From Methanocellales archaeon (GTDB taxonomy: Archaea; Halobacteriota; UBA148; JAUWXC01): a DNA stretch of 64,000 bases. The notes under the pieces are model-generated. The model was not told the DNA's origin. It saw nothing but the letters and a program-made list of their open reading frames with translations, and made no database searches. Position 1 is the first letter of the stretch, and each line of letters starts with the position of its first letter. The stretch covers positions 124,246 through 188,245 of the forward strand of contig JAUWQV010000001.1 of assembly GCA_030610945.1 (NCBI GenBank), read 5' to 3'. Both the position numbers and the translations under genes were made by a program. This document shows, piece by piece, positions 40,164 to 54,313 of the stretch.

Positions 40164-41047
40164 AGACGATGGTTACGGGGTGCAACGGGTTTATCGGCAC
40201 CCATCTGGTCAGGCGATTGTTGAATGAAGGCTTTCGGGTGAGAGGATACGACCTAAAGAAATCGTCGATCACTGACCCCAATTTTGAATTTATCCAGGGC
40301 GACATACTTGATATGGAAAAACTACGCGAAAGCATGGATGGGTGCGAAAGCGTGTTTCACCTCGCAGCCCAGACCACCGTCCCAGAATCAACTTCGGACC
40401 CATACCACGACTTCAAGACAAATGCAGAGGGCACCTTCAACGTGCTTCTTGCAGCAAAAGAATTAGGCGCTAAAGTCATCTATACGTCCACCTCCACGGT
40501 GTACGGGCTTGCAGACACGCCAACCAACGAATCGCACCCGCTAAAGCCAATCTCGTTCTATGGCGCATCCAAGGCGGCAGGCGACCTGTACTGCTTTGCA
40601 TTTCACCATACCTTTGAGGCGGATACGGTCATACTCAGATTGTACAATGTATATGGTCCGGGCAACGGCAAGGGCGTGATGTATGACTTGTTCAAGAAGC
40701 TGGAGCGTGATTCCTCGCACTTAGAGGTTATCGGAACCGGACTGCAGAGGAAGGATTACGTCTATATCGATGATGTAATCGATGCATTTCTAATCACCTA
40801 TGAAAAAGGAGCATCTGGCGAGGCGTATAACGTCGGCAGCGGCGTCTCCGTGACCGTAAACGAAATTGTGAAAAATATCCTTGATATTTTGCAATTGAAC
40901 CCAGAGATCACGTATACCGGTCAATCCTGGGAGGGGGATGTCGAGTCTGCCCTGGCTGATATTTCCAGGTTTAAAAGTCTGGGATGGCGCCCAAAGGTCA
41001 GCATAGAGGATGGTATTAGAAGGACGTATGAGTGGCTTAAAGATTAG
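40160..41047 (+). CDS. NAD-dependent epimerase/dehydratase (UDP-glucose 4-epimerase-like)
   Basis: VTGCNGFIGTHL Rossmann motif and YGASK catalytic YxxxK; 295 aa. Confidence 0.85.
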   Translation: MKTMVTGCNGFIGTHLVRRLLNEGFRVRGYDLKKSSITDPNFEFIQGDILDMEKLRESMDGCESVFHLAAQTTVPESTSDPYHDFKTNAEGTFNVLLAAKELGAKVIYTSTSTVYGLADTPTNESHPLKPISFYGASKAAGDLYCFAFHHTFEADTVILRLYNVYGPGNGKGVMYDLFKKLERDSSHLEVIGTGLQRKDYVYIDDVIDAFLITYEKGASGEAYNVGSGVSVTVNEIVKNILDILQLNPEITYTGQSWEGDVESALADISRFKSLGWRPKVSIEDGIRRTYEWLKD

Positions 41048-41595
41048 CGATCTCTGCTCATTTGCTCTGCTTCCTCTAAAACCCTACCGTAAACCGTTAT
41101 GTCAATTCTAAAGCCAGAGTCAATCAATTTTTTAAGCAAAACTTTAAATTCACTAAGATCGACTATCCCCTTCTTTAAAGCCTCCAAAAGAACTCCTAAC
41201 GTTCCAGTAAAAGTAAGTCCGAGAAATTCAGCGGCAATTCTTGCTCTCTTGTCATCTAGAATAATCAAATCGGCTTTTTTCTCCATGTTGAAACCCTGCA
41301 GGTTACAACTCTCCCAGACATCCGTCTGGGAAATAGCCAAAAGCAGTGCATGTTCTTCCCCTTTATGGATGTTCAAATCGCTTAAATTTTTGTTATGTAT
41401 GTGAACCTCTTCGGTTTTTATAAATCCTCTCTTGAGAAAATCGGTGACCTCTTCAGGAAAATCTGCTTTCTTTGCTACGATCTCTTTAAAAGCTGCCCTT
41501 GGTATGTGAATTTCTCCATAAAGTAATTTAAGCAGGTCAAGCCTTTTTATCTTCGAAAGAAAAATTAATGGAGAGGCATTAGATACTACTAGCAC
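41044..41595 (-). CDS. DUF3368-family PIN-like putative toxin, carrying a 17-aa in-frame insertion
   Basis: NASPLIFLSKIKRLDLL...IP N-terminus, GEEHA...ILDDKRAR core. The 17 extra residues (ISQTDVWESCNLQGFNM) are absent from the paralog at 42132-42632. Confidence 0.65.
   Translation of the reverse strand: MLVVSNASPLIFLSKIKRLDLLKLLYGEIHIPRAAFKEIVAKKADFPEEVTDFLKRGFIKTEEVHIHNKNLSDLNIHKGEEHALLLAISQTDVWESCNLQGFNMEKKADLIILDDKRARIAAEFLGLTFTGTLGVLLEALKKGIVDLSEFKVLLKKLIDSGFRIDITVYGRVLEEAEQMSRDR
41284..41334 (-). repeat. 51-bp double-hairpin element, copy 1 (inside DUF3368 CDS)
   Basis: Minus-strand reading: ATT-TCCCAGAC-GGAT-GTCTGGGA-GA-GTTGTAACC-TGCAG-GGTTTCAAC-ATG. It shares exact 16-mer, 10-mer and 7-mer blocks in the same order with 43263-43313. 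Confidence 0.75.
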
Positions 41596-41912
41596 TTTTT
41601 AATCCTCTTCAGATCTTTTTCAAGTTCTTGCAGGTCGTAGTTTATGGTCATCCCCTTTGAGGATAAAATTTCAATCATTTCCCACAGGTTACGTTCTGCT
41701 ATCTCTGCTGCTTTCCACAGGGAGACTTTGCCTTCTTTGTATAGGTCCAATGCATGATCAACCTTGTATTCCTGCAAGGCTTTGTGAATGAGTTTTCTGA
41801 TAAAGGTTGCCTTGTCTAGGTGCTCTTTTTTTGTGAACTCTTCTATTTCTTTCACGTCCTCAGGGAAGAGGCGCGTGGATACGGTTATAGCCTTGGTCGC
41901 CATTTTTATCAC
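41589..41912 (-). CDS. UPF0175-family antitoxin
   Basis: DLYKEGKVSLWKAAEIAERNLWEMIEILSSKG is typical of UPF0175. 7-nt overlap with the DUF3368 gene. Confidence 0.65.
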   Translation of the reverse strand: MIKMATKAITVSTRLFPEDVKEIEEFTKKEHLDKATFIRKLIHKALQEYKVDHALDLYKEGKVSLWKAAEIAERNLWEMIEILSSKGMTINYDLQELEKDLKRIKKC

Positions 41913-42131
41913 GTCTGCATTTTAATTAAATGTAAACATCTTATTTAAGACTTTTGATAAGAGAGATTTGGAAAAATTCTGCAAAACATATTTTTATTCC
42001 CAAGATTCTCGCTCGTTCTGAGACTCCTCCCAGAGATCGTAAAATTTTTGGGAATTCACCATAAAAGCACGGTTAGATTGTTTCCAACAGACAAACATAG
42101 ATTAGAAGTTGAGGTTTTAGAGTAGTCAATA

Positions 42132-42632
42132 CTACCGTCCAAGTTCATGTAGGATGCCAAGTAGGACCAAGAAATTAGGATCGCCAGACTTGAACAGCTT
42201 TTTTAACATGTCCTCTGCCTCATCACTGGTTACAAGATGTTTCTTTAACCCCCATAATGGGAGATAACAAACAGAAACACACCTAAGCCCGACCTTTGAT
42301 GCTGTGCTAATTGCGAGTTTATCGTCCAATAAAACCTCTGGTAAATCCAACTGAAGTGCCAGCGCAATGGCTGCACACTCCCCCCTCCCCAACCGTTCCC
42401 TTCTAAGAAATGATCTAAAGTACCTCATTCCGATGTCGTTCAGCTCTTTTCTCTCGATAAACTCCTCTTGTTCCAAAAGATGTATTCGCTGAACGTGTCT
42501 TTTCGGCTTTTTATGTTCGTCAAAAACCTCGGTCGGAACATAAATTTTCGAGTATCTCTTCTTTGCGAGCGATATCAGACGTTCGTCTTTAGGCAAATCG
42601 ATGATCATAGATGCGTCGGCGGAGGCTTTCAT
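42132..42632 (-). CDS. DUF3368-family PIN-like putative toxin
   Basis: GRGECAAIALALQLDLPEVLLDDKLA core; 166 aa. Paired with the upstream UPF0175 gene. Confidence 0.6.
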   Translation of the reverse strand: MKASADASMIIDLPKDERLISLAKKRYSKIYVPTEVFDEHKKPKRHVQRIHLLEQEEFIERKELNDIGMRYFRSFLRRERLGRGECAAIALALQLDLPEVLLDDKLAISTASKVGLRCVSVCYLPLWGLKKHLVTSDEAEDMLKKLFKSGDPNFLVLLGILHELGR

Positions 42633-42634
42633 TC

Positions 42635-42952
42635 CTAAACCTCGACGTCAAACTCCTCAAGAAGTAACTTCTTTATGTTTCCGACATCTATTTTTCTGGA
42701 TACTTTTTTGCTTTCGAGAAAATCGATGAAATCCAGTAGCGGTAACTTTGCGAGCTCTGCTGCTTTCTGGATAGATACGTCTCCTTTGTTATACAACTCC
42801 AATGCCAGTTCTTTTCTTTTCTCCTCGATTCCCATCTCGAAGATTTCTCTGATAACCATTGATTTGCCCTTTCTCTCCAATTTCCCCAGCTCATCAAGCT
42901 CTACCACAAAGTTTTTGTGGACCCTAAAGCCGACATACTCGGTTTTCGCCAT
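42635..42952 (-). CDS. UPF0175-family antitoxin
   Basis: LELYNKGDVSIQKAAELAKLPLLDFIDFLESKK. Confidence 0.65.
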   Translation of the reverse strand: MAKTEYVGFRVHKNFVVELDELGKLERKGKSMVIREIFEMGIEEKRKELALELYNKGDVSIQKAAELAKLPLLDFIDFLESKKVSRKIDVGNIKKLLLEEFDVEV

Positions 42953-43016
42953 TCAAATCACATGAAAACATTGTTGTCATATAATTTAAAGCTATCGCCA
43001 AAACTGTGATCCACTT

Positions 43017-43337
43017 CTAAAACAATTTCGAAAAATCGTTGTAAACATTTTTTCTATATCCAACAAACAGGATGACTACTCGCTGATTTTCCTTATCTAC
43101 TTCATAAATTGCCCTGTAATCGCCTATCCTCAGGACACAAAAGTTAGAGTATTTTAAATGTTTGCCCTTTTCGCCTGGAAACTCTTCGAGTTCCTTAATT
43201 TTGTTTTTTATCCTCTCTCTTGTTTGCTTGTCCAGTTTTTCTAAAAATTCTTTTGCTTTTGGATGTTGAAACGCCAAAGGCGTTACAACTCTCCCAGATG
43301 TTCCATCTGGGATATGAAGGAGGACCCCGAACTTCAT
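43017..43337 (-). CDS. relE: RelE/ParE-family toxin carrying a 17-aa in-frame N-terminal insertion
   Basis: KEFLEKLDKQTRERIKNKIKELEE...LRIGDYRAIYEVDKENQRVVILFVGYRKNVY. Residues 9-25 (IPDGTSGRVVTPLAFQH) are encoded by the 51-bp element. Confidence 0.75.
   Translation of the reverse strand: MKFGVLLHIPDGTSGRVVTPLAFQHPKAKEFLEKLDKQTRERIKNKIKELEEFPGEKGKHLKYSNFCVLRIGDYRAIYEVDKENQRVVILFVGYRKNVYNDFSKLF
43263..43313 (-). repeat. 51-bp double-hairpin element, copy 2 (inside relE CDS)
   Basis: Minus-strand reading: A-TCCCAGATG-GAA-CATCTGGGA-GA-GTTGTAACGCC-TTT-GGCGTTTCAAC-AT. It is translated in a different frame from copy 1. Confidence 0.75.
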
Positions 43338-43565
43338 TTAAAGTTCCTCTAATGGAGCGAGAATTTCCGGTTTTTCTCTTGCTTCTTCACTTCTTTCTAC
43401 AAGCATCTTGTAAAACTGGCGGGTCCTTTCTCTCTCCTCATAGAGGGTTATTATGGTTTTGATGGCGTCACTTCTGCTTTTAAATTTGCCTTCGGCAACC
43501 CACCGATCTATTTCCTTAACGGTTTCATCCGGAACTCTTAATTGGACCTGGACCATTGTCCTCAC
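43338..43565 (-). CDS. Ribbon-helix-helix (CopG-type) antitoxin
   Basis: VQLRVPDETVKEIDRWVAEGKFKSRSDAIKTII is an RHH pattern. The stop abuts the relE start. Confidence 0.65.
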   Translation of the reverse strand: MRTMVQVQLRVPDETVKEIDRWVAEGKFKSRSDAIKTIITLYEERERTRQFYKMLVERSEEAREKPEILAPLEEL

Positions 43566-43566
43566 C

Positions 43567-43586
43567 TGTAAACATTATTGTTTACA
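43567..43586. promoter_or_regulatory. Perfect inverted repeat TGTAAACA-TTAT-TGTTTACA, candidate operator of the RHH-relE module
   Basis: 8-4-8 palindrome starting 2 nt upstream of the RHH antitoxin start codon. Confidence 0.4.
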
Positions 43587-43679
43587 AATTACTTAAATAC
43601 TTCGTCCCCCCTTTTGTTTTACTTTTATAATCGTAAAGTATTTAAATACGTAGTACTATTTAAAAAAGTGGGAGGAATA

Positions 43680-43916
43680 ATGGAGACAGCAAAGGTGAGC
43701 ACTAAATATCAGATAGTCGTGCCAAAAAAGGTTAGAGACATGATGGGCATAGAAAAAGAGGACATTTTGCTCTTTAAGATAGAGGATAGTGGGGTTAAAC
43801 TGGAAAAGTTTGATGAACTGCTGAAAAAGCATGTTGGAACGGTTAAACTGAAGAAGGGGTTCAAGGTTCTGAGAAGAGAGTTCAATGAAGAAATGGCACA
43901 AGAGGCGGTAAAGTGA
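43680..43916 (+). CDS. vapB: AbrB/SpoVT-family antitoxin VapB
   Basis: KVSTKYQIVVPKKVRDMMGI. GGAGGA lies 4 nt upstream of the ATG at 43680. Confidence 0.8.
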   Translation: METAKVSTKYQIVVPKKVRDMMGIEKEDILLFKIEDSGVKLEKFDELLKKHVGTVKLKKGFKVLRREFNEEMAQEAVK

Positions 43917-44311
43917 AGGTCTTGATAGACACATCAATTTTCATGTCTATATTTGCCAGGGATGTACATACTGCTAAGTCGGTCAAGCTCTTCAAAGATG
44001 TCCTTGAGAAACACGAAGGCTTTTTCTGCAGCATGACCATAAACGAGTTGATATGGGTGTTAAAAAAGTCAGATTATGATGCCAAGTTTATCCGTGAAAA
44101 GATAGAGTTCATCTTCTCTTCTCCACTAAAATTTCTCGCTACCGATGAAGGCATTTTCATTGTCTCGGTTGAACAAATGGAAAAATACGGACTATCATAC
44201 GGCGATAGTCAGATAATTACTCAAGCAATCGTTAACGGTCTAGACGGCATAGCCAGCTTTGACAAGGATTTTGATATGGTTAAAGAGATGCCCAGAATTG
44301 AGACGATTTAG
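43913..44311 (+). CDS. vapC: PIN-domain toxin VapC
   Basis: VLIDTSIF, YGDSQIITQA and SFDKDFD acidic motifs. 4-nt overlap with vapB. Confidence 0.8.
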   Translation: MKVLIDTSIFMSIFARDVHTAKSVKLFKDVLEKHEGFFCSMTINELIWVLKKSDYDAKFIREKIEFIFSSPLKFLATDEGIFIVSVEQMEKYGLSYGDSQIITQAIVNGLDGIASFDKDFDMVKEMPRIETI

Positions 44312-44387
44312 TCGCAAATTCATATCGTTAACTTTTGTAGGTTATCGCTTAAACGAAGTATATACAATCGTTCATAAAATGTAGACT

Positions 44388-44603
44388 TTAAATTTTTTTA
44401 TCAAGTAATTCTAACAATTGCCACGCTCGTATTATTTTTATATGTTCAAATTCTTCCAGATCGAGGAGATGCCTATCACCGGAGATGATATAATCGGCAT
44501 CTGCTTCGATAGCACCAGCTTCTGCTCTTCTTATTATTTCAGATTCATTACCATCCCAAAAAGTCGCAGAAATCAGAACATTAGTATCGAGGATGGTCTT
44601 CAT
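44388..44603 (-). pseudogene. Internally deleted PIN-domain toxin (71 aa)
   Basis: The N-terminal ILDTNVLISA is joined almost directly to the C-terminal ADYIISGDRHLLDL. About 60 residues of a normal ~135-aa PIN toxin appear to be missing. Confidence 0.5.
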
Positions 44604-44607
44604 CCCT

Positions 44608-44871
44608 CTACCTCTTTTTTCTGACTTCGTGGATCATTGTATCTACATCGTCCCTTGATATCCCCAGTTCCTTGGCCCTCTTTCTTATCGGTTTTACAAT
44701 TTCATCGAAAGTCCTTTCTATTACCGTTCTTTCTATCTTTTTAAAAATCACAGTGTTGTCTTTGCCGAAAACAAAGAACTGATCCCCGCTTCGGATCCCG
44801 AGCTCGCGTCTGATAGCGCCCGGAATCACCACTTGACCTTTTGGAGAGATTTTAGTCGTTTTGACTTCCAT
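44608..44871 (-). CDS. AbrB/SpoVT-family antitoxin
   Basis: ISPKGQVVIPGAIRRELGIRSGD; 87 aa. Lies upstream of the truncated PIN. Confidence 0.75.
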   Translation of the reverse strand: MEVKTTKISPKGQVVIPGAIRRELGIRSGDQFFVFGKDNTVIFKKIERTVIERTFDEIVKPIRKRAKELGISRDDVDTMIHEVRKKR

Positions 44872-44882
44872 GGTATCACCAT

Positions 44883-44898
44883 GTAAAATATGTTTTAC
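44883..44898. promoter_or_regulatory. Inverted repeat GTAAAA-TATG-TTTTAC upstream of the AbrB antitoxin gene
   Basis: Lies 12 nt upstream of the start codon at 44871. Short and AT-rich, so weak. Confidence 0.25.
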
Positions 44899-44936
44899 TT
44901 ATTCTTAAGACTTATGGATGAAAAACAGTAATATAT

Positions 44937-45158
44937 TCACAGCTCGCCAAGCAAATCTTCAACAGAAGTAATTTCCCTAACCCGACCTACTTTAATATCC
45001 CGGTCGCTTTTACGGAGTGCTTCCATCGTTTTCGGATTAGTGATAATTTCAACTGAATCAATGAGTGCTTCGATGTCTTCTCGCGTAGCCATCTTCTCTT
45101 CCATCCTCTTTAGCTCTTGATATAATATATGATATATATCTTCAATTGTAACGGTCAT
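44937..45158 (-). CDS. Putative antitoxin (RelB/Phd-like), orphan copy
   Basis: 73 aa. Paralog of 46024-46239, with DNA similarity extending into the upstream region. No toxin gene follows it. Confidence 0.45.
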   Translation of the reverse strand: MTVTIEDIYHILYQELKRMEEKMATREDIEALIDSVEIITNPKTMEALRKSDRDIKVGRVREITSVEDLLGEL

Positions 45159-45312
45159 GTTCTTTCATCAGATTCATGTCCATAATAAGCATTTCGATTT
45201 GCATAATAAGTTCCTGGCGGCGTTGGTCCAAACCAAAAAGTTATAAATCAGTTAGACATTTATGCAAGCAAGCTTCTGACAGGTCGGATTTAATACTAAT
45301 GAGGATCAACAC

Positions 45313-45612
45313 ATGCTTGACTACATCAGAAATTTGATCAAACGTAGGGACTACGTAGTTAAATTACATACAAGAAAACGGATGATAGAAAGAAAGATTA
45401 AGATAGGTGAAGTTAAAGAGGCTATAGCAAACGGCGAGATAATAGAAGAATATCTTGACGACAAGCCGTTGCCAAGTTATCTGATATATGGGAAAACGCT
45501 AAAGGACCGGCCGATTCATGTTGTGGTCGGTGTCGATGAAGACGTAATCGCAATAATAACAGTATATGAACCAGAGTCCGAAAAATGGATTGGTTATAAG
45601 AGGAGGAGATGA
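45313..45612 (+). CDS. DUF4258-family putative toxin
   Basis: HTRKRMIERKIKIGEVKEAIANGEIIEEYLDDKPLPSYLIYG...PIHVVVG...IITVYEP is a strong DUF4258 pattern. Confidence 0.7.
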   Translation: MLDYIRNLIKRRDYVVKLHTRKRMIERKIKIGEVKEAIANGEIIEEYLDDKPLPSYLIYGKTLKDRPIHVVVGVDEDVIAIITVYEPESEKWIGYKRRR

Positions 45613-45863
45613 AAATGCCCAGACTGAAAATTTGTCCAGATTGCGGGGGGAAAATGCAGAAGGGGAGGACAAAATTCATAACAGAATCTGATGAAGTTTT
45701 GATAGCAATAGAAAATCTGCCAGCTGATATTTGCATCCAGTGTGGTGCAGAATATCTTTCAGCAGATGTCGATGAGTACATCGAAACGGTTGTTGATAAG
45801 GTGGTTGCAAAGAAGATCAAGCCACATCGAGAATTGGTCTACCGAGCTGTGGTCAGTGCATAA
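45609..45863 (+). CDS. YgiT-type zinc-finger protein (putative antitoxin)
   Basis: CPDCGG...CIQCGAEY two-CxxC pattern. 4-nt overlap with the DUF4258 gene. Confidence 0.7.
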   Translation: MKMPRLKICPDCGGKMQKGRTKFITESDEVLIAIENLPADICIQCGAEYLSADVDEYIETVVDKVVAKKIKPHRELVYRAVVSA

Positions 45864-46027
45864 CGCAGTAACTCACCGGAAAGCCAGCCACCTTTACATG
45901 CAATGGGTCTTTCTGTAAACCGTTTGATTTTCTTGTCAAGTTCCTCAAGGGCTTTCTTATTCTTTCTGATGATTTTGAGGGACTCAAGAAAAGTATCTGT
46001 TCGCTTGACTGTCCAAGTCATGTTCAC
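45839..46027 (-). pseudogene. 3'-truncated RelE/ParE-like toxin (62 aa)
   Basis: The RelE-like N-terminal half (FLESLKIIRKNKKALEELDKKIKRFTERP...LSGEL) is present, but the C-terminal beta-sheet (RxGDYR...) is missing. The last 25 nt overlap the convergent YgiT gene. Confidence 0.45.
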
Positions 46028-46239
46028 AGCTCGTCAAGCAAATCTTTAACAGAAGTAACTTCCCTAACCCGACCTGCTTTAACATCCCGGTCGCTTTTAC
46101 GGAGTGCTTCCATCGTTTTTGGATTGCTAAGAATTTCAACTGAGTCAATGAGTGCTTCGATGTCTTCTCGCGTAACCATCTTCTCTTCCATCCTCTTTAG
46201 CCCTTGGTATACGTCTTCAATTGTAACTAAACCAGTCAT
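46024..46239 (-). CDS. Putative antitoxin (RelB/Phd-like)
   Basis: 71 aa. 4-nt overlap with the truncated RelE-like ORF. Paralog of 44937-45158. Confidence 0.5.
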   Translation of the reverse strand: MTGLVTIEDVYQGLKRMEEKMVTREDIEALIDSVEILSNPKTMEALRKSDRDVKAGRVREVTSVKDLLDEL

Positions 46240-46393
46240 ATTCTTTCATTTAGATTCGTGCCCATATAATCATTTCGACCCACATATTAGTAATCTTGGG
46301 TATTAACAACGCACGATATATGCCTAGTGCTGATTCCTTGTCAGTCTTTTTTACTTGTAACATAAAAAAGCCAAAAAGGATAAAAAATAGAGA

Positions 46394-46414
46394 AGAAGGG
46401 GATTAGCCCCTTCT
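46394..46414 (-). terminator. Stem-loop followed by a T-run, downstream of the 402-aa surface protein gene
   Basis: AGAAGGGG-ATTAG-CCCCTTCT (8-bp stem) lies 23 nt past the stop and is followed on the minus strand by CTCTATTTTTTAT. Confidence 0.55.
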
Positions 46415-46436
46415 TAGCCATATTTTCAGCTTATTT

Positions 46437-47645
46437 TCACTCTTCGCGTCTGAGTACCAGATATGCGACTGCAAGCAATCCTGCGATTGCGAACACAGCC
46501 TCAAAGCCCGGCGTCGGTGGTGTTACCGTTGGTGTTACCGTTGGTGTTACTGTTGGTGTCACGGTCGGCGTTACCGTGGGCGTCACGGTTGGTGTTGCTG
46601 TTGGTGTTGATGTCGGAGTCGGCGTTGCTCGTGCATATAATCGGTCCACTGTTATCGATGCTGTTGTCGAATGCCCCGCTTCATCGGTTGCCACGACCGT
46701 GAAGACATTGTTTCCAAATGATAATGACACGACTTGACTATAGGGTGTTGCTGGTGTTATTGATACCCCATTAAATGTAAGTGTGGAAAGGTTGGTTTCA
46801 GTCACAGTTCCAGAGATCGTCGTTGTGCTATGATATGTGCGTGTGCCTTCTGAACTCGAGACGGTTACTGTTGGTGCTGTGTTGTCCACAGTAACGGTAA
46901 CTGTGTAGTTAGTCCCTGTATTCCCTGCATTATCCGTTGCATTTACCCCAAGAGCATATGTTCCTGCTACACTGGGAACTGTGTAATCTCCTTCCCAGCC
47001 TCCGTCGGTGGCTGTTCCGCTGGTCATTTCCAGAGCAGTTCCGTTCACGTCCACTGACGCTGTGCCGTTTGCATCTGTAACGTTCACAATTATATGAATT
47101 GGAGCTCCACCTTGAACTATCGAGTCGTTTATGGTCACGAGACTTACCACCGGTGCTGTGTTTTCGATTACGAGCACATTAAATGATTTAGGGGAGATTG
47201 CAGTCGTGTTATCAGTCGCGTACACGGTCCAGGTGTAAGTGGTGTTGATGGTATGCGTTTTGGCTGTCGCATTAAATCCAAAAGCTACTATGTCTGTGGG
47301 GTTAAAAACTTCTGGGCTAAAAGTCCATGAAAGATTGGTCGTATCGTTACTGAAGTCCGTAGTGATATTACACCAGTCCGTTCCACTGTCGAACGTAAAT
47401 CCCGATATATTATAGCTGATGTTTACCTCAGTTATGTATTCCGCAGCACTGCCACCGTTTAACACCGTGATGTTGAACGTTTCAGATACCCCGCCTTTCA
47501 CGTCAAGATCGCTGCCCGTCGTGGTGTTGGTCACTGTGATGTCAACGGCATTCACAGGCATCACGAACACAGCAAAAACTAAAAGCACCAGCACTGCCGT
47601 CAATACTATGGTAGGAGGCTTCCTATTTGTATTACCTATCTTCAT
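46437..47645 (-). CDS. Secreted surface glycoprotein-like protein with PGF-CTERM archaeosortase sorting signal
   Basis: Signal peptide (VLLVFAVFVMPVNA), many NxT/S sequons, a (TPTV)n linker, then PGFEAVFAIAGLLAVAYLVLRREE (PGF motif + TM + basic tail). Confidence 0.8.
   Translation of the reverse strand: MKIGNTNRKPPTIVLTAVLVLLVFAVFVMPVNAVDITVTNTTTGSDLDVKGGVSETFNITVLNGGSAAEYITEVNISYNISGFTFDSGTDWCNITTDFSNDTTNLSWTFSPEVFNPTDIVAFGFNATAKTHTINTTYTWTVYATDNTTAISPKSFNVLVIENTAPVVSLVTINDSIVQGGAPIHIIVNVTDANGTASVDVNGTALEMTSGTATDGGWEGDYTVPSVAGTYALGVNATDNAGNTGTNYTVTVTVDNTAPTVTVSSSEGTRTYHSTTTISGTVTETNLSTLTFNGVSITPATPYSQVVSLSFGNNVFTVVATDEAGHSTTASITVDRLYARATPTPTSTPTATPTVTPTVTPTVTPTVTPTVTPTVTPPTPGFEAVFAIAGLLAVAYLVLRREE
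46515..46625 (-). repeat. Coding 12-bp tandem repeat (GGTGTTACCGTT-like), Thr-Pro-Thr-Val linker
   Basis: Encodes TPTPTSTPTATPTVTPTVTPTVTPTVTPTVTPTVTPP. Confidence 0.8.
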
Positions 47646-47809
47646 CTGACCCCCCCCCTAAGGGGTTTCATAATTTTTGTCCTGCTGAGTATTTCAGTTG
47701 CAATCATACAAATACTATTCGGAAAAACGCCCACAACATCAACAAAAATCAGGAACAGGAGAGTCGAGAGAATCCTCTCTTCCTCAAAGATAATAAAAAA
47801 TATAGAAAG

Positions 47810-47829
47810 AAGGGATTTTCATCCCTTCC
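47810..47829 (-). terminator. Stem-loop followed by T-runs, downstream of the 688-aa surface protein gene
   Basis: GAAGGGAT-TTTC-ATCCCTTC (8-bp stem) lies 25 nt past the stop and is followed on the minus strand by TTTCTATATTTTTTATTATC. Confidence 0.55.
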
Positions 47830-47853
47830 TTATTTTAGTTGTTTACGTTCCTT

Positions 47854-49920
47854 TCACTCTTCGCGTCTGAGTACCAGATATGCGACTGCAAGCAATCCTG
47901 CGATTGCGAACACAGCCTCAAAGCCCGGCGTCGGTGGTGTTACCGTTGGTGTTACCGTTGGTGTTACCGTTGGTGTTACTGTTGGTGTTACTGTTGGTGT
48001 TGGTATTGGTGCCGATGCAAGGACGTTGAAGGTTGCTGTCTCCTTCGTACCGTCGGCGTTGACCTCAACATCCCATTTGCCCAGGGTGTAGTCAGTCGTG
48101 TCGAACTCGGCTGTCACTGCACCATCTGCGACCTTCGTGGTCACGATAGCAAGCGAGGCATCTGGCCCTGTCAGCGTGACAGTTGCGAGTTTGCCGTCCT
48201 TCCTGTTCGTCGTGGCTTCGATTATCAGCGTAGCACCTGCTCCTACATCAGCGGTGGGTGATATTGTCACCTTGTCGTCCTCGACCTTGAACTCCGTGGT
48301 CGCGGTCATGTCGTCGCTACCGGGCATCTCAGTCGTGTAGTAGTTGAACGTGTCCTTGATTTGTGACAGTGTCAGGCCCGAGTAGGTGCCGGAGTAAGAT
48401 GCTTTAACATCTGCAAGAGCTGCATTTCTGCCTGGATGTATGACGAACACGGTGTATGTGCCCTTGGTCAACATAGTTGAGAATGGTTTCTTCGTGAACG
48501 TCCAGTCATCTGAGTTGACAGAGACCGAGCCATTCCACGAACAAGCACCATTGTCGTTCCTGAATGCCAGCATGTAGATAGTTGTGGCACCATTCGCGAC
48601 ACCTGTAACCTCCATGGTCGTGGTGTCGGTCTTGGCCATAACGTCAGGTGCGGTCACGGCTACGTCGCCTTCTATCAGCAGTATCGATGTGGCTGCATCT
48701 GCTGATACACCTGTATTAGACGTCAGGTTACCATTGTGTGCATATATGTCAACTCTGTAGGTGCCTGGCAGCATGGTTGCCGTGTCCCACTTGTACTCGT
48801 ACACGTCGGAACTGTCCTTGGCGTCGTATGCCCAGATCTTGTAGGCATCAGCACTGTCTTTGATTGTGACGGTTGCACCCTCATAGCCCGTCACGGTACC
48901 GGTGATTGTCACCTTTGTGCCGATTGTGGCTATTGTCGGTGCGTCTACAGATACCACAGCATCGGATACGGAAACATCAACTGTTGCGGTTTTTGTAGTT
49001 GTAGTGTCCCTTACCTTCACGGTGTACGTGCCTGTGTCGTTGAATGTCATCGTCAACTTGAACGTGCTGTCAGATTTTATCGTGATGGTCGCGTTGTTGT
49101 TATCGCCTGCCGATAGTGCTGTGCCAATGTCGTTAAAGCTGAGTACGATGGTGTTCTTGTCCACAGGTGTCGTGGTTACATAAACGGTGTCACCTGCAGG
49201 TGCAGTGATTGTGAGCGTCGTTTTCTCACCCTTGACCACTGAGGTCTTGCTTGCACTTATCGCTATGTCTGCACTCTCTATCGCCAGCGATAAGGTGTTG
49301 GACTTCATGTCCAATCCCTCTGCTGCACTGGTGTTGGTCTTTACCTGCACCGTGTACGTGCCTGCCTTGAACCCGGTTGTGTTTAAACAGAAGGTCTTGA
49401 TGAGTGACATCGTTACATTCTTCAGAGCCTGAGTGTCTCCATCAGTCCCCAGTATGTTGCCATCTGGGTCCTTGACCTCTATGTTGGCTGCGTCGCCGTT
49501 AGGTATGTTCGTACTTACATCAAGTGTGAGATTCGTGCCCGCTGTCGTGCTGGATACCGAGGTGGTGCCGTACTTTAGATCAATGGTTAGAATCGGAGCA
49601 CTTACGGACATATCCGCAGCTCCAGTAGCATTACCACTGCAGTTGTATGTACCTGCCGAAAGTATGCTGGAGTCGTAATCAGCGCTGGTTAGACTGAAAG
49701 TTAACCCCTTTATCGAGTCTGGAGTTAACCCTATGATTGTAGTCGCAGATTCATTGTTGTCAAAGTTTAATTGCTGGCCAATTAGCACATTGTTGGTGCC
49801 GCCAACGGTTATGTCGTTTTTGTCTCCGCCTGCTGCCGCACTCACTGGCGTCACAAACGCTCCAAAGAATGTCAGAATCATTAGTGTCGCTAGAAATGTA
49901 GCTGTAATTTTGTTCTTCAT
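47854..49920 (-). CDS. Large secreted surface (S-layer-like) protein with PGF-CTERM sorting signal
   Basis: Signal peptide (MILTFFGAFVTPVSA) and a Thr/Val-rich body with repeated beta-domain character. The (TPTV)n linker and PGF-CTERM tail match those of the neighbouring gene. AAGGAGGT lies upstream of the ATG. Confidence 0.8.
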   Translation of the reverse strand: MKNKITATFLATLMILTFFGAFVTPVSAAAGGDKNDITVGGTNNVLIGQQLNFDNNESATTIIGLTPDSIKGLTFSLTSADYDSSILSAGTYNCSGNATGAADMSVSAPILTIDLKYGTTSVSSTTAGTNLTLDVSTNIPNGDAANIEVKDPDGNILGTDGDTQALKNVTMSLIKTFCLNTTGFKAGTYTVQVKTNTSAAEGLDMKSNTLSLAIESADIAISASKTSVVKGEKTTLTITAPAGDTVYVTTTPVDKNTIVLSFNDIGTALSAGDNNNATITIKSDSTFKLTMTFNDTGTYTVKVRDTTTTKTATVDVSVSDAVVSVDAPTIATIGTKVTITGTVTGYEGATVTIKDSADAYKIWAYDAKDSSDVYEYKWDTATMLPGTYRVDIYAHNGNLTSNTGVSADAATSILLIEGDVAVTAPDVMAKTDTTTMEVTGVANGATTIYMLAFRNDNGACSWNGSVSVNSDDWTFTKKPFSTMLTKGTYTVFVIHPGRNAALADVKASYSGTYSGLTLSQIKDTFNYYTTEMPGSDDMTATTEFKVEDDKVTISPTADVGAGATLIIEATTNRKDGKLATVTLTGPDASLAIVTTKVADGAVTAEFDTTDYTLGKWDVEVNADGTKETATFNVLASAPIPTPTVTPTVTPTVTPTVTPTVTPPTPGFEAVFAIAGLLAVAYLVLRREE
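47932..48012 (-). repeat. Coding 12-bp tandem repeat, Thr-Pro-Thr-Val linker
   Basis: Encodes PIPTPTVTPTVTPTVTPTVTPTVTPP. Confidence 0.8.
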
Positions 49921-50153
49921 TATTTATTTAACCTCCTTTAGTTTATTTCTTGGCCCCACATGGGACCTTTTCTTGAAGAGTGATGTGCTATCTCTTATAT
50001 AGACTTTTGCTTGCCCATTCCCATTCGGAAATGGGACAATCGCAAAGACATCATTGTCGTTTCTAAATCGCCTAAACTTTTAGACAATTGTCGAAACGGT
50101 CCTCACCCTCCTAATCCCGTCATTTTGGGTTATGAAATAACATTAGACCTATT

Positions 50154-50222
50154 CCCTTTTAAAGCTTTTGTGGTTCTTTTGGATTATTGCCACGTTTTTC
50201 TGATTTTCTAAAAATTGTCGAT
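50154..50222. repeat. Intergenic repeat, copy A (CCCTTTTAAA...CTTTTGTGGTT...CTGATTTTCTAAAAATTGTCGAT)
   Basis: Aligns by eye with 52340-52406 and 53233-53291. The 23-nt core differs by 1 nt from copies B and C. Confidence 0.7.
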
Positions 50223-50245
50223 GCAAACAAAAGGTTTTATATCTG

Positions 50246-50265
50246 TGTGCACATATGTGTGCACA
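50246..50265. promoter_or_regulatory. Two copies of the palindromic octamer TGTGCACA spaced by TATG, candidate vapB operator
   Basis: Located 9 nt upstream of the vapB ATG (50274) and just downstream of a TTTTATAT TATA-like box. Confidence 0.45.
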
Positions 50266-50273
50266 GATTAAAG

Positions 50274-50495
50274 ATGACCAAGACCATTTCGCTGTCCGAT
50301 GAGGCGTATGATATACTGAAGAGGATGAAAACAGGAAAGGAGAGCTTCTCGGACACCATCAAGAAGCTAGCCGGAAGAGGGAAGTTGAGCGAGGTTCTTG
50401 ACCTCTACCCGGAGATAATGGATAAAGAGTACGAGAAATCAGCCAAGGAGTTAAGAAAGAAGATAGACGCCAAGCTGAAGGACATGGGACTATGA
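50274..50495 (+). CDS. vapB: VapB-type antitoxin (PF02697-like)
   Basis: MTKTISLSDEAYDILKRMKTGKESFSDTIKKL matches the family pattern. 4-nt overlap with vapC. Confidence 0.7.
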   Translation: MTKTISLSDEAYDILKRMKTGKESFSDTIKKLAGRGKLSEVLDLYPEIMDKEYEKSAKELRKKIDAKLKDMGL

Positions 50496-50899
50496 AGTGC
50501 CTTGACACGACGTACTTTGTCGATTTAATCAGAAAACCGTCCGCCATCAGGGACATAACGATGAGATTGGATGAGGAGGATAGGTGCGCCACGACCGTTT
50601 TTAACGTCTATGAGGCACTGTTTGGAAGTTATGCGGTGGATGATGAAAAGGGCGAGAAGATACGAGAGAAGATAAGCAAAGCCGCCAGCAGGCTGGAAGT
50701 CCTGGAATTCCGTTATGTGGATGCATTGAAGGCAGCCGAGATAGGCGGAGCATTGCTTAAAAAGAAAAAAAGAGTCGGTGCAGATGCCATCACGGCTGCG
50801 ATCGCAATAAACAACGGCTGCGAGGCGGTTGTCACGAGAAACAAGAAGCATTTTGGGTGGATAAAAGACCTAACCGGCTTGGAAGTTGAGACATACTAG
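50492..50899 (+). CDS. vapC: PIN-domain toxin VapC
   Basis: CLDTTYFVD, GADAITAAIA and VVTRNKKHF motifs. Confidence 0.8.
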   Translation: MKCLDTTYFVDLIRKPSAIRDITMRLDEEDRCATTVFNVYEALFGSYAVDDEKGEKIREKISKAASRLEVLEFRYVDALKAAEIGGALLKKKKRVGADAITAAIAINNGCEAVVTRNKKHFGWIKDLTGLEVETY

Positions 50900-50949
50900 T
50901 CAAGGTTCCAAAACCTTAAAACGTTTGCACGAAAGATTTTTATATTGTG

Positions 50950-50967
50950 AATTCCCAAATGGGAATT
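50950..50967. promoter_or_regulatory. Perfect 8-2-8 inverted repeat AATTCCCA-AA-TGGGAATT, candidate operator
   Basis: Ends 10 nt upstream of the AbrB-type antitoxin ATG at 50977. Confidence 0.4.
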
Positions 50968-50976
50968 GTGATTAGT

Positions 50977-51204
50977 ATGGAAGCGAAGATGCATTCCGGA
51001 AAATTGTACATACCGAAGAGATTTCTCAAGGCATTGAACATCCAACCCAACTCTGAGATTGAGGTTGAATTAGAGAACGATCATATAGTCATCAGACCAA
51101 GCGTAGGGGTGGATAAAGGAGCTAAGAGATTGTTAGAGTTACTAAAAAATCCGCCATATGGATTGGCAGAGGATAAGGAGTACTCATATGAGGATATTGA
51201 TTGA
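50977..51204 (+). CDS. AbrB/SpoVT-family antitoxin
   Basis: SGKLYIPKRFLKALNIQPNSEIEVELENDHIVIRP. The internal ATG at 50977 is preferred over the track start. Confidence 0.7.
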   Translation: MEAKMHSGKLYIPKRFLKALNIQPNSEIEVELENDHIVIRPSVGVDKGAKRLLELLKNPPYGLAEDKEYSYEDID

Positions 51205-51661
51205 TACTGAAATATGGGCGTATGCGTACAAGAAGCCAAAGAAGGACTGGTTCGAGAGTGAAAAGGAGTATGAGAAGCAGATATCTTTGCATGAACGTGC
51301 AGGGGAGTTTGTGAAGGATAAGCTCATGAATGATGTTATATTCATGTCGCATCAAGAGATCGCAGAGATATGGCATGTTTTAACCATGCGAGGGAGAGGG
51401 ATATCAGGGGATGTGGCGTATGATATCATCAAAGCCCTACTTGACACAAGCACCGTGATTCAAGTGGGAATTACAAAAAGCGATGTTACCAGGGCTATTG
51501 AGCTCAGCAGGGAAACGAAAATACATATATGGGACTTTCTAGTGGTTCTTCCGTGCGAACAATTAGATAGGATTTATACAATGGATGAGCATTTCAGGCA
51601 CAAAGCCTTTCAAGAGATTGCCCCAGTTGAGAACCCGCTGGGCGTGTGGTTAACGATGTGA
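51188..51661 (+). CDS. PIN-domain toxin
   Basis: MRILIDTEIW, HIWDFLV and IYTMDEHF acidic motifs. Confidence 0.7.
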   Translation: MRILIDTEIWAYAYKKPKKDWFESEKEYEKQISLHERAGEFVKDKLMNDVIFMSHQEIAEIWHVLTMRGRGISGDVAYDIIKALLDTSTVIQVGITKSDVTRAIELSRETKIHIWDFLVVLPCEQLDRIYTMDEHFRHKAFQEIAPVENPLGVWLTM

Positions 51662-51676
51662 AGATGTCACGGCGAG

Positions 51677-52084
51677 CTACTTCTCAAGCCTGACGATGTC
51701 ATCGAATTTATCATAGTGAGTATCAAGCGAGTAAATCTCCTTTATCCTCATCTTCCGCATGGTTAAAATGTGATGTGCATCTATGAAGTCAATATCGTAT
51801 TTATCGTAAAGTTCCAGGATCTTATCTGACATAGCGTGATTTTCCGCCCCGATCAATTTCAAGCCACTGCAACCTAAAAATGCTGAGAGGTACTCCCTTA
51901 TCTCGTTTTTGGGCTTTTTGGCTCTCTCAAGGACGTGTGCGATCTCTGCCAGTGTAAATATCGTCGTGACGGCTTTCTCCCTTCCATCCGATATCCTCAG
52001 CATTATTTCTCGCATATCGTCGAGCTTCGCCTTTGGCGCCCTGAGCATAACACCAAGCGGAATAGAAGCATCGAGATATCTCAT
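51677..52084 (-). CDS. PIN-domain toxin
   Basis: MRYLDASI, DFIDAHH and IYSLDTHYD. ATGA overlap with the upstream antitoxin stop. Confidence 0.7.
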   Translation of the reverse strand: MRYLDASIPLGVMLRAPKAKLDDMREIMLRISDGREKAVTTIFTLAEIAHVLERAKKPKNEIREYLSAFLGCSGLKLIGAENHAMSDKILELYDKYDIDFIDAHHILTMRKMRIKEIYSLDTHYDKFDDIVRLEK

Positions 52085-52338
52085 TCTTCCTCGCGCTCCG
52101 CGGTATGAGCAAAAGCCTCGTGCATGAGCTTCACAGGATCGTCTGCAAAGCCCTCTAAACACCCTTCACATACCTCAACGAAGTTTTTCTTATGTCTGAC
52201 CAGTTTTATCTCGCAGGCTATCTCATCTTTTGGCCCTATGTTCTGTTCATCCCGTACCTCAGCAGGAATTAGTATCCTGCCCTTATCGTCCACGGTTCCC
52301 ACAAATTCATCCATATTTCCCACTATAGAAATATTCAT
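52081..52338 (-). CDS. AbrB/SpoVT-family antitoxin
   Basis: VGTVDDKGRILIPAEVRDEQNIGPKDEI. Start taken at MNISIV (52338). Confidence 0.65.
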   Translation of the reverse strand: MNISIVGNMDEFVGTVDDKGRILIPAEVRDEQNIGPKDEIACEIKLVRHKKNFVEVCEGCLEGFADDPVKLMHEAFAHTAEREEE

Positions 52339-52339
52339 A

Positions 52340-52406
52340 TTTAAAACTTTTGTGGTTCTTTTGTGGTTATTCGCTATGTTTCTCTGATTTTCTAAAAATC
52401 GTCGAT
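52340..52406. repeat. Intergenic repeat, copy B
   Basis: TTTAAAACTTTTGTGGTTCTTTTGTGGTTATTCGCTATGTTTCTCTGATTTTCTAAAAATCGTCGAT. Begins 2 nt from the antitoxin start codon on the opposite strand. Confidence 0.7.
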
Positions 52407-52488
52407 TTTGGTGGTTGAGGAGTAGTTTTGCCGTTTGAGGTGAACGAAAGGGACATAATGGCGAAGTGCAACCCCTCATGACCACAAA

Positions 52489-53190
52489 TTACAATTTCTC
52501 CGCTATCTTTTCAAGAAGTTCAACCGCTCGATTTTGGCCCTTCACCAGTGAATCCTGGCCCACTATCATTTTATCTTGACCTTTTACCAGTGAATTCTGC
52601 CCTTCTATTAATGACGTCTGACCCTCTGTTAATGAATCCAGACTTTGTATCATTTTATCTTGGCCCTTGACCAGTGAATCTTGACCTTCTATTATTTTAT
52701 CTTGCCCTTCTGTTAATGAATCCAGACTTTGTATCATTTTATCTTGGCCCTTGACCAACACATCTTGACCCTCCGTCAACGAATCCAGACTTTGTATCAT
52801 TTTATCTTGGCCTTCTGATAGGGCTTCTGTGTTCCTCTCGATCCCCTGAATCGATTTAACCCCAACATCGAGTTTTCTTCCAATATCGCTCAATTCGTCT
52901 GTAGGTGCCTTGAAAAATACTGAGGGCAAGTCCACTTTGTAGGATATTTCTTCCTGATTTACTTCATCTATTGCGGCTCCAACATTCGCACATTTATCCC
53001 TAAGTTCCTTTATTAGATTTTTAACTGAAGGGGCTGCCCCACCGCAGACAATCTTTACGGTGCCGTCAATATCGTTATAAACCATACCTCTGATGTTAAG
53101 GCTTTTAGCAATATTTTCAACCAGATTCCTGAATCCTATATCTTGAACCCTGCCTTTTATCTGGATGTTGTAGTTTTTGTAGACTTGCAT
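52489..53190 (-). CDS. Acylphosphatase-like domain protein with a C-terminal array of about 14 heptad repeats (LxxGQDx)
   Basis: The N-terminus (IKGRVQDIGFRNLVENIAKSLNIRGMVYNDIDGTVKIVCGG) has the acylphosphatase-like VQGVGFR pattern. The C-terminus is MIQSLDS/LTEGQDx/LVKGQDK repeated. Confidence 0.6.
   Translation of the reverse strand: MQVYKNYNIQIKGRVQDIGFRNLVENIAKSLNIRGMVYNDIDGTVKIVCGGAAPSVKNLIKELRDKCANVGAAIDEVNQEEISYKVDLPSVFFKAPTDELSDIGRKLDVGVKSIQGIERNTEALSEGQDKMIQSLDSLTEGQDVLVKGQDKMIQSLDSLTEGQDKIIEGQDSLVKGQDKMIQSLDSLTEGQTSLIEGQNSLVKGQDKMIVGQDSLVKGQNRAVELLEKIAEKL
52524..52818 (-). repeat. Coding 21-bp (heptad) tandem repeat array with higher-order 63/84-bp units
   Basis: GAATCCAGACTTTGTATCATTTTATCTTGGCC recurs three times on the plus strand. 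Translates to the LxxGQDx heptads. Confidence 0.75.
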
Positions 53191-53232
53191 CGTATTTTAC
53201 TTCCCCTTGGTTAGACATCTTATGGAATAACG

Positions 53233-53291
53233 CCCTTTTAAATCTTTTGTGGTTATTACCCTGTTCCTCTGATTTTCTAAAAATCGTCGAT
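53233..53291. repeat. Intergenic repeat, copy C
   Basis: CCCTTTTAAATCTTTTGTGGTTATTACCCTGTTCCTCTGATTTTCTAAAAATCGTCGAT. The 23-nt core is identical to copy B. It lacks the internal CTTTTGKRGTT duplication seen in A and B. Confidence 0.7.
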
Positions 53292-53347
53292 TTTTATAGG
53301 TAGTCCACGTTTATATATCGTGTCATAATATTACCGATAGTGGTAAG

Positions 53348-53578
53348 ATGAAATTAAAGGTCGTCTTAGAACCTGCAGAAGAGGGAGGATACACTGTATA
53401 CGTACCTTCACTTCCTGGTTGTATTTCTGAGGGAGATTCACGAGAGGAGGCACTAGAGAATATCAAAGAAGCGATATCCCTTTACTTAGAGCCTGATGAA
53501 GAAAAACTAGCACTAAAACAAAAAGGTATGCAGGTGTATATGAGATTGCTATATGAAACTTCCAGTATAGATGTCTAG
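53348..53578 (+). CDS. hicB: HicB-family antitoxin (UPF0150), apparently solo
   Basis: EEGGYTVYVPSLPGCISEGDSREEALENIKEAISLYLE is the canonical HicB N-terminal domain. No intact hicA is adjacent. Confidence 0.65.
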   Translation: MKLKVVLEPAEEGGYTVYVPSLPGCISEGDSREEALENIKEAISLYLEPDEEKLALKQKGMQVYMRLLYETSSIDV

Positions 53579-53622
53579 ATGCTTTGTTGTCGAGTGCAAC
53601 TCTTCACAGGTGTGATGTGGAG

Positions 53623-54030: not shown

Positions 54031-54034
54031 GCGA

Positions 54035-54289: not shown

Positions 54290-54293
54290 GATA

Positions 54294-54313
54294 TGGTATT
54301 ACTATTTGGTAAT
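54294..54313. promoter_or_regulatory. Inverted repeat GTATTAC-TATTTG-GTAATAC upstream of vapB
   Basis: Begins 5 nt upstream of the antitoxin start (54289). Confidence 0.3.

Follow-up and report, generated by a model that had tools for sequence, protein, structure and literature searches.

A 51-nt double-hairpin insertion in an archaeal relE toxin gene and a putative family of very short mobile repeats

Hairpin-forming repeats that lie in frame within genes are known from Rickettsia, from some bacteria rich in repetitive extragenic palindromic (REP) sequences, and from mitochondria. We found no report of them from archaea, and none that are 45-52 nt long with two unlike hairpins and no inverted ends. 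REPs are mostly intergenic and are often found after stop codons (PMC3733652, PMC3116915). Hairpin recognition, the lack of terminal inverted repeats (TIRs) and target duplications, a short target on the 5' side, and a strand bias are hallmarks of transposition by HUH/Y1 enzymes (PMC5027513). Here, we describe a 51-nt double-hairpin element inserted in a relE toxin gene of a Methanocellales archaeon, within a 64,000-nt stretch of contig JAUWQV010000001.1 (the window; positions without a contig handle refer to it). It is probably one member of a family of mobile repeats in uncultured Methanocellales/Methanosarcinales-like archaea; the repeats are tiny (about 45-52 nt), non-coding, and non-autonomous, and would be moved in trans as folded single-stranded DNA (ssDNA).

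The interrupted gene encodes a toxin of 106 residues. Its membership in the RelE/ParE family is indicated by a match to PF05016 over residues 25-99 (E-value 1.8e-12, 48 bits against a cutoff of 23) and by the ribbon-helix-helix (RHH) antitoxin gene directly upstream. The N-terminal limit of the conserved region should be noted. The Pfam match begins at residue 25, and alignments with RelE structures in the PDB begin at residues 24-26, which align to RelE positions 4-10. Residues 9-25 (IPDGTSGRVVTPLAFQH) are encoded by the element, and they are missing in 47 of 49 homologs, the protein itself being left out. The expectation of the initial annotation that RelE homologs as a rule do not carry this segment was borne out. 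The closest insert-free homologs (P0003, P0004, and P0005), with identities of 82-89%, consist of 89 residues, i.e., 106 minus 17. Their gap covers exactly residues 9-25, and their N-termini read MKFKV-FLHPKAKEF.

The same difference is seen at the nucleotide level. Empty alleles read CTCCAC/CCAAAG in contigs L004 and L005, CTTCAC/CCGAAG in L009 and L010, and CTTCAT/CCTACG, with a single AT, in L011 (slashes mark the insertion point). The filled alleles are those of the window, L001, L003, and L006, and they differ from the empty ones at the site by exactly 51 nt. Judging from these sequence comparisons, the element in relE, referred to as copy 2, has added 51 nt to the relE/parE gene, after codon 8 and before codon 9. 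Its plus strand is ATGTTGAAACGCCAAAGGCGTTACAACTCTCCCAGATGTTCCATCTGGGAT. Four assemblies made independently of one another (the window, Logan SRR14865926, JGI 3300029812, and JGI 3300033145) all contain the insertion, which is therefore not an assembly artefact. No copy of the element was found in a 20-kb stretch around a more distant relE gene (L039). In the AlphaFold model, strand 1 is separated from helix 1 by the insert, which is predicted to be a disordered loop, with a predicted local distance difference test score (pLDDT) below 50 for residues 8-22 and of 73-84 for the core. Two relE alleles, at L006 1033-1389 and L011 2231-2530, have C-termini altered by frameshift or replacement; some alleles of the toxin, with or without the element, are thus decaying.

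Another copy (copy 1) is located 2 kb from copy 2, in the gene of a DUF3368 (PIN-like) toxin. The sense strand of copy 2 is A-TCCCAGATG-GAA-CATCTGGGA-GA-GTTGTAACGCC-TTT-GGCGTTTCAAC-AT and that of copy 1 is T-TCCCAGAC-GGAT-GTCTGGGA-GA-GTTGTAACC-TGCAG-GGTTTCAAC-AT; each of them forms two adjacent hairpins. The blocks ATGTTGAAAC, TTACAACTCTCCCAGA, and TCTGGGA are shared by the two loci in the same order. A T:A pair in stem 1 of copy 2 corresponds to a C:G pair in copy 1, and copy 2 has one pair more. Stem 2 differs in its apical sequence, with the pairing and a T-T mismatch retained. The shared blocks and these stem differences had been recognized in the initial annotation, as had the origin of RelE residues 9-25 from the element and the different reading frames of the two copies relative to it. 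It had taken both copies as 51 bp long, which is correct for copy 2; copy 1 is 48 nt and adds 16 residues, as the lengths of the orthologs (167 versus 183 residues) show.

The resemblance of the two copies extends beyond the 16-mer TTACAACTCTCCCAGA, as had been claimed. The 16-mer itself occurs exactly twice in the window against an expectation of 0.07, and two matches were obtained in none of 100 shuffles. A covariance model (CM) built from these copies gives 86 and 69 bits (E-values of 3e-19 and 4e-15) for the window copies and finds nothing else above 17 bits in the 64 kb. An Rfam search at the copy 2 locus returned no family, with noise only (E-values of at least 0.8). Folding z-scores of the window copies are -3.1 to -5.1 as RNA and -5.3 and -7.4 as ssDNA; the values for copy 2 are -5.1 as RNA and -7.4 as ssDNA, the latter at -17.6 kcal/mol. 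Chance resemblance or an assembly artefact would be in keeping with the small number of copies in the window. Given these E-values, the four independent assemblies, and the members in unrelated contigs described below, such an explanation is hardly credible.

The PIN-gene insertion is defined in the same manner as the relE one. DUF3368 orthologs P0052-P0054 have 167 residues in place of 183, and an alignment of paralogs shows the same gap. Empty PIN sites in L003, L007, and L008 read GGCT-AT-GGAGA, and the window reads GGCT-AT-(46 nt)-AT-GGAGA. It should be noted that L003 has the relE copy and an empty PIN site, which indicates that the PIN insertion is younger or polymorphic. The element is polymorphic between sister strains. 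Moreover, since the two window copies differ in their loops and upper stems, neither was copied from the other, and other source copies must exist.

Further members were sought by relaxed pattern scans followed by a covariance model (R1) and a second model (R2). The collections scanned by exact pattern were 185,579 genomes and the Joint Genome Institute (JGI) metagenome collection, and diverged copies are missed by exact patterns. Carrier genomes were surveyed as stretches of 7-20 kb. R1 gave matches of 54, 53, 37, and 22 bits in L028 and L022, and R2 gave matches of 35-75 bits; the carriers are L028, L022, L011, and L006. Strict scans of genome and metagenome contigs with a 17-mer core plus one stem arm gave no match, a weak negative for the metagenome set because the element-bearing short JGI contigs L003 and L006 are not in it. 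BLAST searches of plasmids and phages gave nothing meaningful. When six-frame peptides of both copies were searched against a set of 5.8 billion proteins, only P0007 was retrieved under an E-value ceiling of 10, by which weaker matches are hidden. The antisense-frame peptide matched only P0072, an unrelated tandem-repeat protein, in a representative protein library.

The settings of the members vary. The copy in L028 lies antisense inside an Elp3 gene and lengthens the protein by exactly 17 residues (VETLSELQQSQMSHLGR) compared with the Elp3 of M. infernus, whose structure has been solved (PDB 6IAD). The three copies in L022 lie within 7.3 kb and are all intergenic: one is upstream of a gene, one comes directly behind a stop codon in the space between two convergent genes, and one adjoins a start codon. 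R2 revealed a second subfamily, in which hairpin 1 is TCGCAGATC…GATCTG(A)CGA and hairpin 2 is GTTCTCAAATC-TTT-GATTTGGAAC. Its members are 51-nt insertions in the 3' tails of PGF-CTERM surface-protein genes in L006 and L011. The insertion turns the C-terminus AYLVLRREE into AYLCRRSKI, with a stop codon introduced and a basic C-terminal tail left. Two PGF-CTERM genes of the window have empty sites. A Methanosarcinales archaeon (CP061209.1) is syntenic with the window at about 90-96% nucleotide identity, and the other relatives are metagenome-assembled genomes (MAGs) of Methanocellales. Two other hairpins were found in these searches. At L011 206-234, on the minus strand, there is a lone unit resembling hairpin 1 (ATG-TCACAGACC-CTT-GGTCTGTGA-GGTAT) without hairpin 2, which could be either half of an element or a copy that has decayed. 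At L021 7668-7736, in a Nitrospirales MAG, a perfect hairpin 2 (GTTGTAAC-GTCAG-GTTTCAAC-AT) is accompanied by a poor, interrupted hairpin 1. This locus, which the search pattern had pre-selected, has a score of 22-25 bits and is probably due to chance.

A common layout can be described for the unit. One or two nucleotides are followed by hairpin 1 (8-9 bp with the core CAGA/TCTG and a loop of 3-5 nt), a 2-nt linker, hairpin 2, and again 1-2 nt. Hairpin 2 consists of 4 bp, one unpaired or mismatched T, 3-6 further bp, and a loop of 3-5 nt, and the T after the fourth pair is common to both subfamilies. When eight copies were folded as ssDNA, all formed hairpins (z-scores of -4.7 to -7.4) and seven of them formed two; hairpin 2 is degenerate in copy L022c. 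Paired cells make up 96.7% of an alignment of seven copies, and six of the 19 pairs show changes on both sides, such as T:A to C:G, C:G to G:C, and G:C to C:G to T:A. The covariation score was reached by none of 500 shuffles, and sliding the partner by 1-3 columns left 37-46% paired, in an alignment that is fitted to the model and small in number.

No ORF exists within the element on direct reading of the copies. Two of the three frames on each strand are open. In-gene copies have lengths of 48 or 51 nt, which are multiples of 3, and the mid-gene copies (relE, PIN, and Elp3) are placed in stop-free frames. The mid-gene copies are accordingly predicted to be translated as an extra loop of 16-17 residues. 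There is no conservation of the peptide: different frames are used in the two window copies, the Elp3 copy is translated from the opposite strand, and some other copies are untranslated. Structure, not peptide, is conserved in the family. This agrees with the proposal of the initial annotation that conservation lies at the nucleotide and structure level, which is now supported by compensatory pairs across seven copies and by the strand of the Elp3 member and the intergenic positions of others.

The hairpins within ORFs would also suit an element that acts in RNA, either as a bulge-helix-bulge (BHB) intron or as a coding gap bypassed by the ribosome, the protein being the normal 89-residue RelE. 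The triplet CAT, which stands before the relE copy and at its end, could serve as matching take-off and landing codons. Such codons are known from T4 gene 60 and mitochondrial bypass elements. For a BHB intron, however, pairing of the element's first bases with the start of the downstream exon is not possible in either of the copies, whose flanks also differ from each other. The two 3-nt bulges and 4-bp helix cannot form, and the predicted folds show only the two internal hairpins, so that the intron was rejected. Bypass would not be needed because no stop codon occurs in the frame used, and the borders of copy 1 have no matching codons. Considering also that the Elp3 copy is antisense and that others are intergenic, we judge an RNA-level element to be very unlikely. 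Readings as a CRISPR repeat, a C/D-box RNA, or an H/ACA RNA were likewise discarded, the required motifs being absent from the sequence.

The borders of the element bear on how it entered. AT is found on both sides of copy 1, copy 2, L022b, and L022c, and a single AT is found in the empty sites. A target duplication of CAT had been suggested for copy 2. Only AT is common to both borders of the two window copies; the C is coincidental, and the duplication is absent from subfamily 2. The AT borders could be either a 2-bp duplication or the trace of a unit, with T as its first base and A as its last, that went in between A and T. AT is present on the 5' side in four of the six subfamily-1 sites, and there is no single conserved tetranucleotide. 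TTTT-N3-4-A(T/C) occurs upstream in four of the six subfamily-1 sites, compared with 1.7% of AT sites in the window (P of about 1e-6 for a motif defined after the data were seen). When the relE target, as kept in L006, is reverse-complemented, it agrees with the PIN target at 20 of 20 positions, apart from one 2-nt gap. This similarity has a local score of 18; the null is 7.0 ± 1.4 and reaches at most 15 in 4000 sites. The PIN, relE, and Elp3 target sites are dyad-symmetric (CTTTT…AT…AAAAG), and the element can thus sit in either orientation relative to the target similarity. Both window copies are on the minus strand, and all three L022 copies are on one strand; the relation to neighboring genes varies, and GC skew is uninformative.

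Such borders could be produced by a conventional element, i.e., a MITE (miniature transposable element with inverted repeats) or mini-IS moved by a DDE transposase with a 2-bp AT duplication, or by a serine recombinase acting at a palindromic AT. In serine integrases, a palindromic crossover dinucleotide would permit either orientation. The AT on both sides of copies 1 and 2 with a single AT in the empty sites, and the two nearly identical window targets holding the element in opposite orientations, are consistent with this. TIRs, however, are lacking. When the 5' end (ATCCCAGA) is compared with the reverse-complemented 3' end (GTTGAAAC), only two of eight positions agree, and the same is true of all members. 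In addition, a double-stranded circle or synaptic substrate of 46-49 bp would seem physically implausible, the AT…AT arrangement is not universal, and the dyad symmetry of the targets alone explains the reversed similarity. We therefore regard a conventional transposon or serine recombinase as improbable.

The divergence of the alleles gives signs of recent movement. The antitoxin-toxin region of L006 (filled) differs by 7.3% from that of the empty alleles L009 and L010 and by 12.9% from that of the window; the filled alleles thus do not form a monophyletic group. The element itself is identical between L006 and the window at 51 of 51 positions, and L003 matches at 50 of 51. At a rate of 0.129, we calculate that 51 nt would remain unchanged with a probability of about 9e-4. 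This identity points either to repeated hits by near-identical copies or to a short conversion tract between alleles. Conversion without active transposition could be extended to the whole family: each gene would have been entered once, long ago and by any mechanism, the element would now spread between alleles by homologous recombination or gene conversion, and the hairpins would be kept by selection, e.g., for a transcript-stabilizing or terminator-like function of the REP kind. L006 shares a few bases flanking the element with the window, while the rest of its gene resembles the empty alleles L009 and L010. Compensatory changes keep the stems even among the paralogous PGF-CTERM copies, and one copy is situated between convergent genes, right behind a stop codon. 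Contrarily, the family occupies at least seven unrelated sites with differing loops and upper stems, which indicates several independent insertions from different source copies. The PIN copy is missing from the sister strain that has the relE copy, and the inconsistent orientation to genes argues against a common RNA function. A single ancient entry per gene is thus unlikely.

The preferred explanation is movement in trans, as folded ssDNA, by an enzyme that recognizes the hairpins. Movement of this HUH type is favored because the hairpins are the sole conserved feature, there is neither a TIR nor a clear duplication, the target is short and on the 5' side, and copies lie on one strand per contig. 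The most plausible mover would be an HUH/Y1 tyrosine transposase of the IS200/IS605 or REP-associated tyrosine transposase (RAYT) kind. The target would be entered either between its A and its T or 3' of …AT. Toxin genes and surface loops would merely be places that tolerate in-frame insertion.

The window contains a complete IS200/IS605 element, 11 kb from the double-hairpin element. It is absent at the syntenic site of L007 (CAGTTAG/CTCAGCAC) and was inserted 3' of TTAG without duplication. Its left hairpin, TCCCTACGAC-TTCA-GTCGTGGGA with an extrahelical T, lies 17 nt from the end, and its right hairpin, CCCATGAT-TTCA-ATCATGGG, is set back from the other end by 9-10 nt; the two are similar to each other. 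That hairpin 1 was derived from them was considered and rejected. The TCCC…GGGA foot is not conserved in the family, and the score of 11, at the 99th percentile of the null, is within the null.

Several observations weigh against this explanation. No transposase linked to the family was found in the 7-20 kb carrier stretches. The classical geometry of IS200/IS605 ends is not seen, the hairpins of the element lying 1-3 nt from the ends and being unlike each other. The AT…AT borders are missing in L028 (AC), L022a (TT), and subfamily 2 (G/…/G). The strand bias comes from only five copies in two contigs, and there are only about seven independent insertion sites (relE, PIN, Elp3, the PGF-CTERM tail, and three intergenic spacers). 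The relaxed exact-pattern scans gave one further locus each in the genome and JGI collections, and five scans of viral contigs gave chance matches only (L002, L012, L013, and L031-L038; CM scores of at most 23 bits). L006 also shares the CAT and CCAAAAGC of the window right beside the element, and the identity of the relE copies could be that of a gene-conversion tract. These shared flanking bases fit repeated insertion and conversion alike.

The element may, more tentatively, represent a new, minimal class of transposable element. It would be an ssDNA "dumbbell" of 45-52 nt with two hairpins and linkers of 2-3 nt, which an archaeal nuclease/ligase specific for hairpins (HUH or other) cuts out and puts back between the A and the T of the dyad-symmetric CTTTT-N3-4-AT-N3-4-AAAAG, with repeated homing into the same site of diverged alleles. 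If this is the case, no smaller site-specific mobile DNA would be known from cellular genomes, and archaeal proteins would have in it a natural source of in-frame loops. If the family is actively mobile, it would provide a minimal substrate for a new archaeal DNA-transposition activity, with a sequence-defined target testable in vitro, and a route by which archaeal proteins (toxins, Elp3, and surface proteins) gain loops of 16-17 residues. On the practical side, such insertions disrupt the assembly of metagenomes, make orthologs look more divergent than they are, and mimic lineage-specific protein features.

The features are listed in Table 1. Both window copies and the IS200/IS605 element are in or beside a toxin-antitoxin island (about 41000-54300) with a G+C content of 0.42-0.45, compared with 0.48. 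The island contains two UPF0175/DUF3368 pairs, one RHH/RelE pair, several pairs of MazE- or VapB-like and PIN genes, and a HicB-like gene. Three copies (71-84% identical) of an 80-nt sequence are located upstream of toxin-antitoxin operons at 50144-50222, 52326-52406, and 53223-53291 and are possibly a shared promoter/operator region. The two PGF-CTERM paralogs on the minus strand have 12-nt repeats of the GGTGTTACCGTT type at 46519-46611 and 47936-48016, which encode Thr/Pro-rich linkers, and their 3' regions are 92% identical over 160 nt. An array with a 21-nt period is found at 52528-52800 in ORF 52489-53190, which encodes an acylphosphatase domain plus a beta-roll or ice-binding-like repeat. 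A 117-nt Rfam tRNA match (43.7 bits) at 62957-63073 on the minus strand, uncalled by ARAGORN, is presumably an intron-containing archaeal tRNA gene.

Table 1. Positions of the double-hairpin elements, their host genes, and related features
Feature	Position	Strand	Remarks
Double-hairpin element copy 2	43263-43313	minus	51-nt insertion in relE; empty orthologous sites in L004, L005, L009, L010, L011
Copy 2 hairpin 1	43292-43312	minus	9-bp stem, 3-nt loop
Copy 2 hairpin 2	43265-43289	minus	4 bp, T-T mismatch, 6 bp, TTT loop
AT directly 5' of copy 2	43314-43315	minus	bases 2-3 of His8 codon CAT; also found at the end of the insertion, 43263-43264
relE/parE-family toxin gene, 106 aa	43017-43337	minus	insertion after codon 8; Pfam PF05016
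RHH antitoxin gene, paired with relE	43338-43565	minus	Pfam PF01402; same gene pair in L003-L006, L009, L010
Double-hairpin element copy 1	41285-41332	minus	48-nt insertion in DUF3368/PIN gene; hairpin 1 41312-41331, hairpin 2 41287-41309
DUF3368 (PIN-like) toxin gene, 183 aa	41044-41595	minus	interrupted after residue 87-88; Pfam PF11848
UPF0175 antitoxin gene, partner of the interrupted DUF3368 gene	41589-41912	minus	Pfam PF03683
L028 copy (JGI contig)	L028 1594-1646		antisense inside Elp3 gene; 54 bits
L022 copies (uncultured Methanocellales MAG, GTDB representative)	L022 2282-2334, 6516-6562, 5523-5572		53, 37, 22 bits
Subfamily-2 copies	L006 566-618; L011 112-164, 1080-1131		one L011 copy in gene fragment
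Empty PGF-CTERM sites	46437-46470, 47854-47887		window genes 46437-47645, 47854-49920, ending AYL/VLRREE-stop
Complete IS200/IS605	54393-56131	minus	Y1 tnpA 55633-56067; tnpB 54437-55738 (OrfB_IS605 plus Cas12f-like TNB)

Among the known systems, Rickettsia palindromic elements (RPEs) and intragenic REPs resemble the family most in behavior. They are small palindromic non-coding repeats that lie in frame in unrelated genes, are translated, and have insert-free homologs (PMC10969869, PMC3733652). They are bacterial, however, RPEs are about 100-150 bp long, and REPs and RPEs bear a GTAG or CGTC tag at one end, whereas the present elements are archaeal, 45-52 nt long, untagged, and built of two different hairpins. 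The GTAG/CGTC tag, as defined in PMC3733652, is found at neither end of the element; only GTAA is present, inside hairpin 2. The REP units mobilized by RAYTs (Y1 HUH enzymes), including their paired form, the REPIN, are also similar in having hairpin units of 20-40 nt without MITE-type TIRs or an ORF, and an IS200/IS605-related enzyme is believed to move them as ssDNA (PMC3733652, PMC3116915). The two hairpins of a REPIN are inverted copies of one another, unlike those of the element. No REPs or RAYTs of archaea turned up in the searched literature, and no RAYT was found with the family in the 7-20 kb carrier stretches.

IS200/IS605 elements and palindrome-associated transposable elements (PATEs) have neither TIRs nor target duplications, are recognized by their hairpins, insert 3' of a short specific sequence, and have a strand-tied orientation (PMC5027513); the family likewise has no TIRs and may resemble them in the other respects. 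The hairpins of IS200/IS605 are subterminal, about 10-20 nt away from the cleavage sites, and alike on the left and right, and the minimal ends together exceed 70 nt, whereas the hairpins described here are 1-3 nt from the ends of a whole unit of 45-52 nt. Archaeal MITEs (Sulfolobus, Halobacterium, and Haloquadratum) are likewise non-autonomous repeats (PMC10969869). They have TIRs and target duplications corresponding to those of a parent IS, and lengths of at least 80 bp, none of which is found in the family.

The hairpin elements of mitochondria (the double-hairpin elements of Allomyces, the GC clusters of yeast, and the repetitive hairpin elements (RHEs) of sponges) are mobile, very short, and made up of one or two hairpins. 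They are intergenic and occasionally located in rRNA or protein genes, and they are polymorphic between close relatives, often without target duplications (PMC2800124, PMC4478555). They differ from the family in being organellar and in having unrelated sequences. Two adjacent hairpins, dispersed copies, and presence/absence polymorphism are found here as in the mitochondrial double-hairpin elements, a likeness of form only that is no evidence of common descent. No archaeal description of such elements was found in the searchable literature, which is absence of evidence only. The family belongs to none of these groups, i.e., RPE/REP, MITE, IS200/IS605, or the mitochondrial elements; it is like RPEs and REPs in behavior and like the mitochondrial elements in form.

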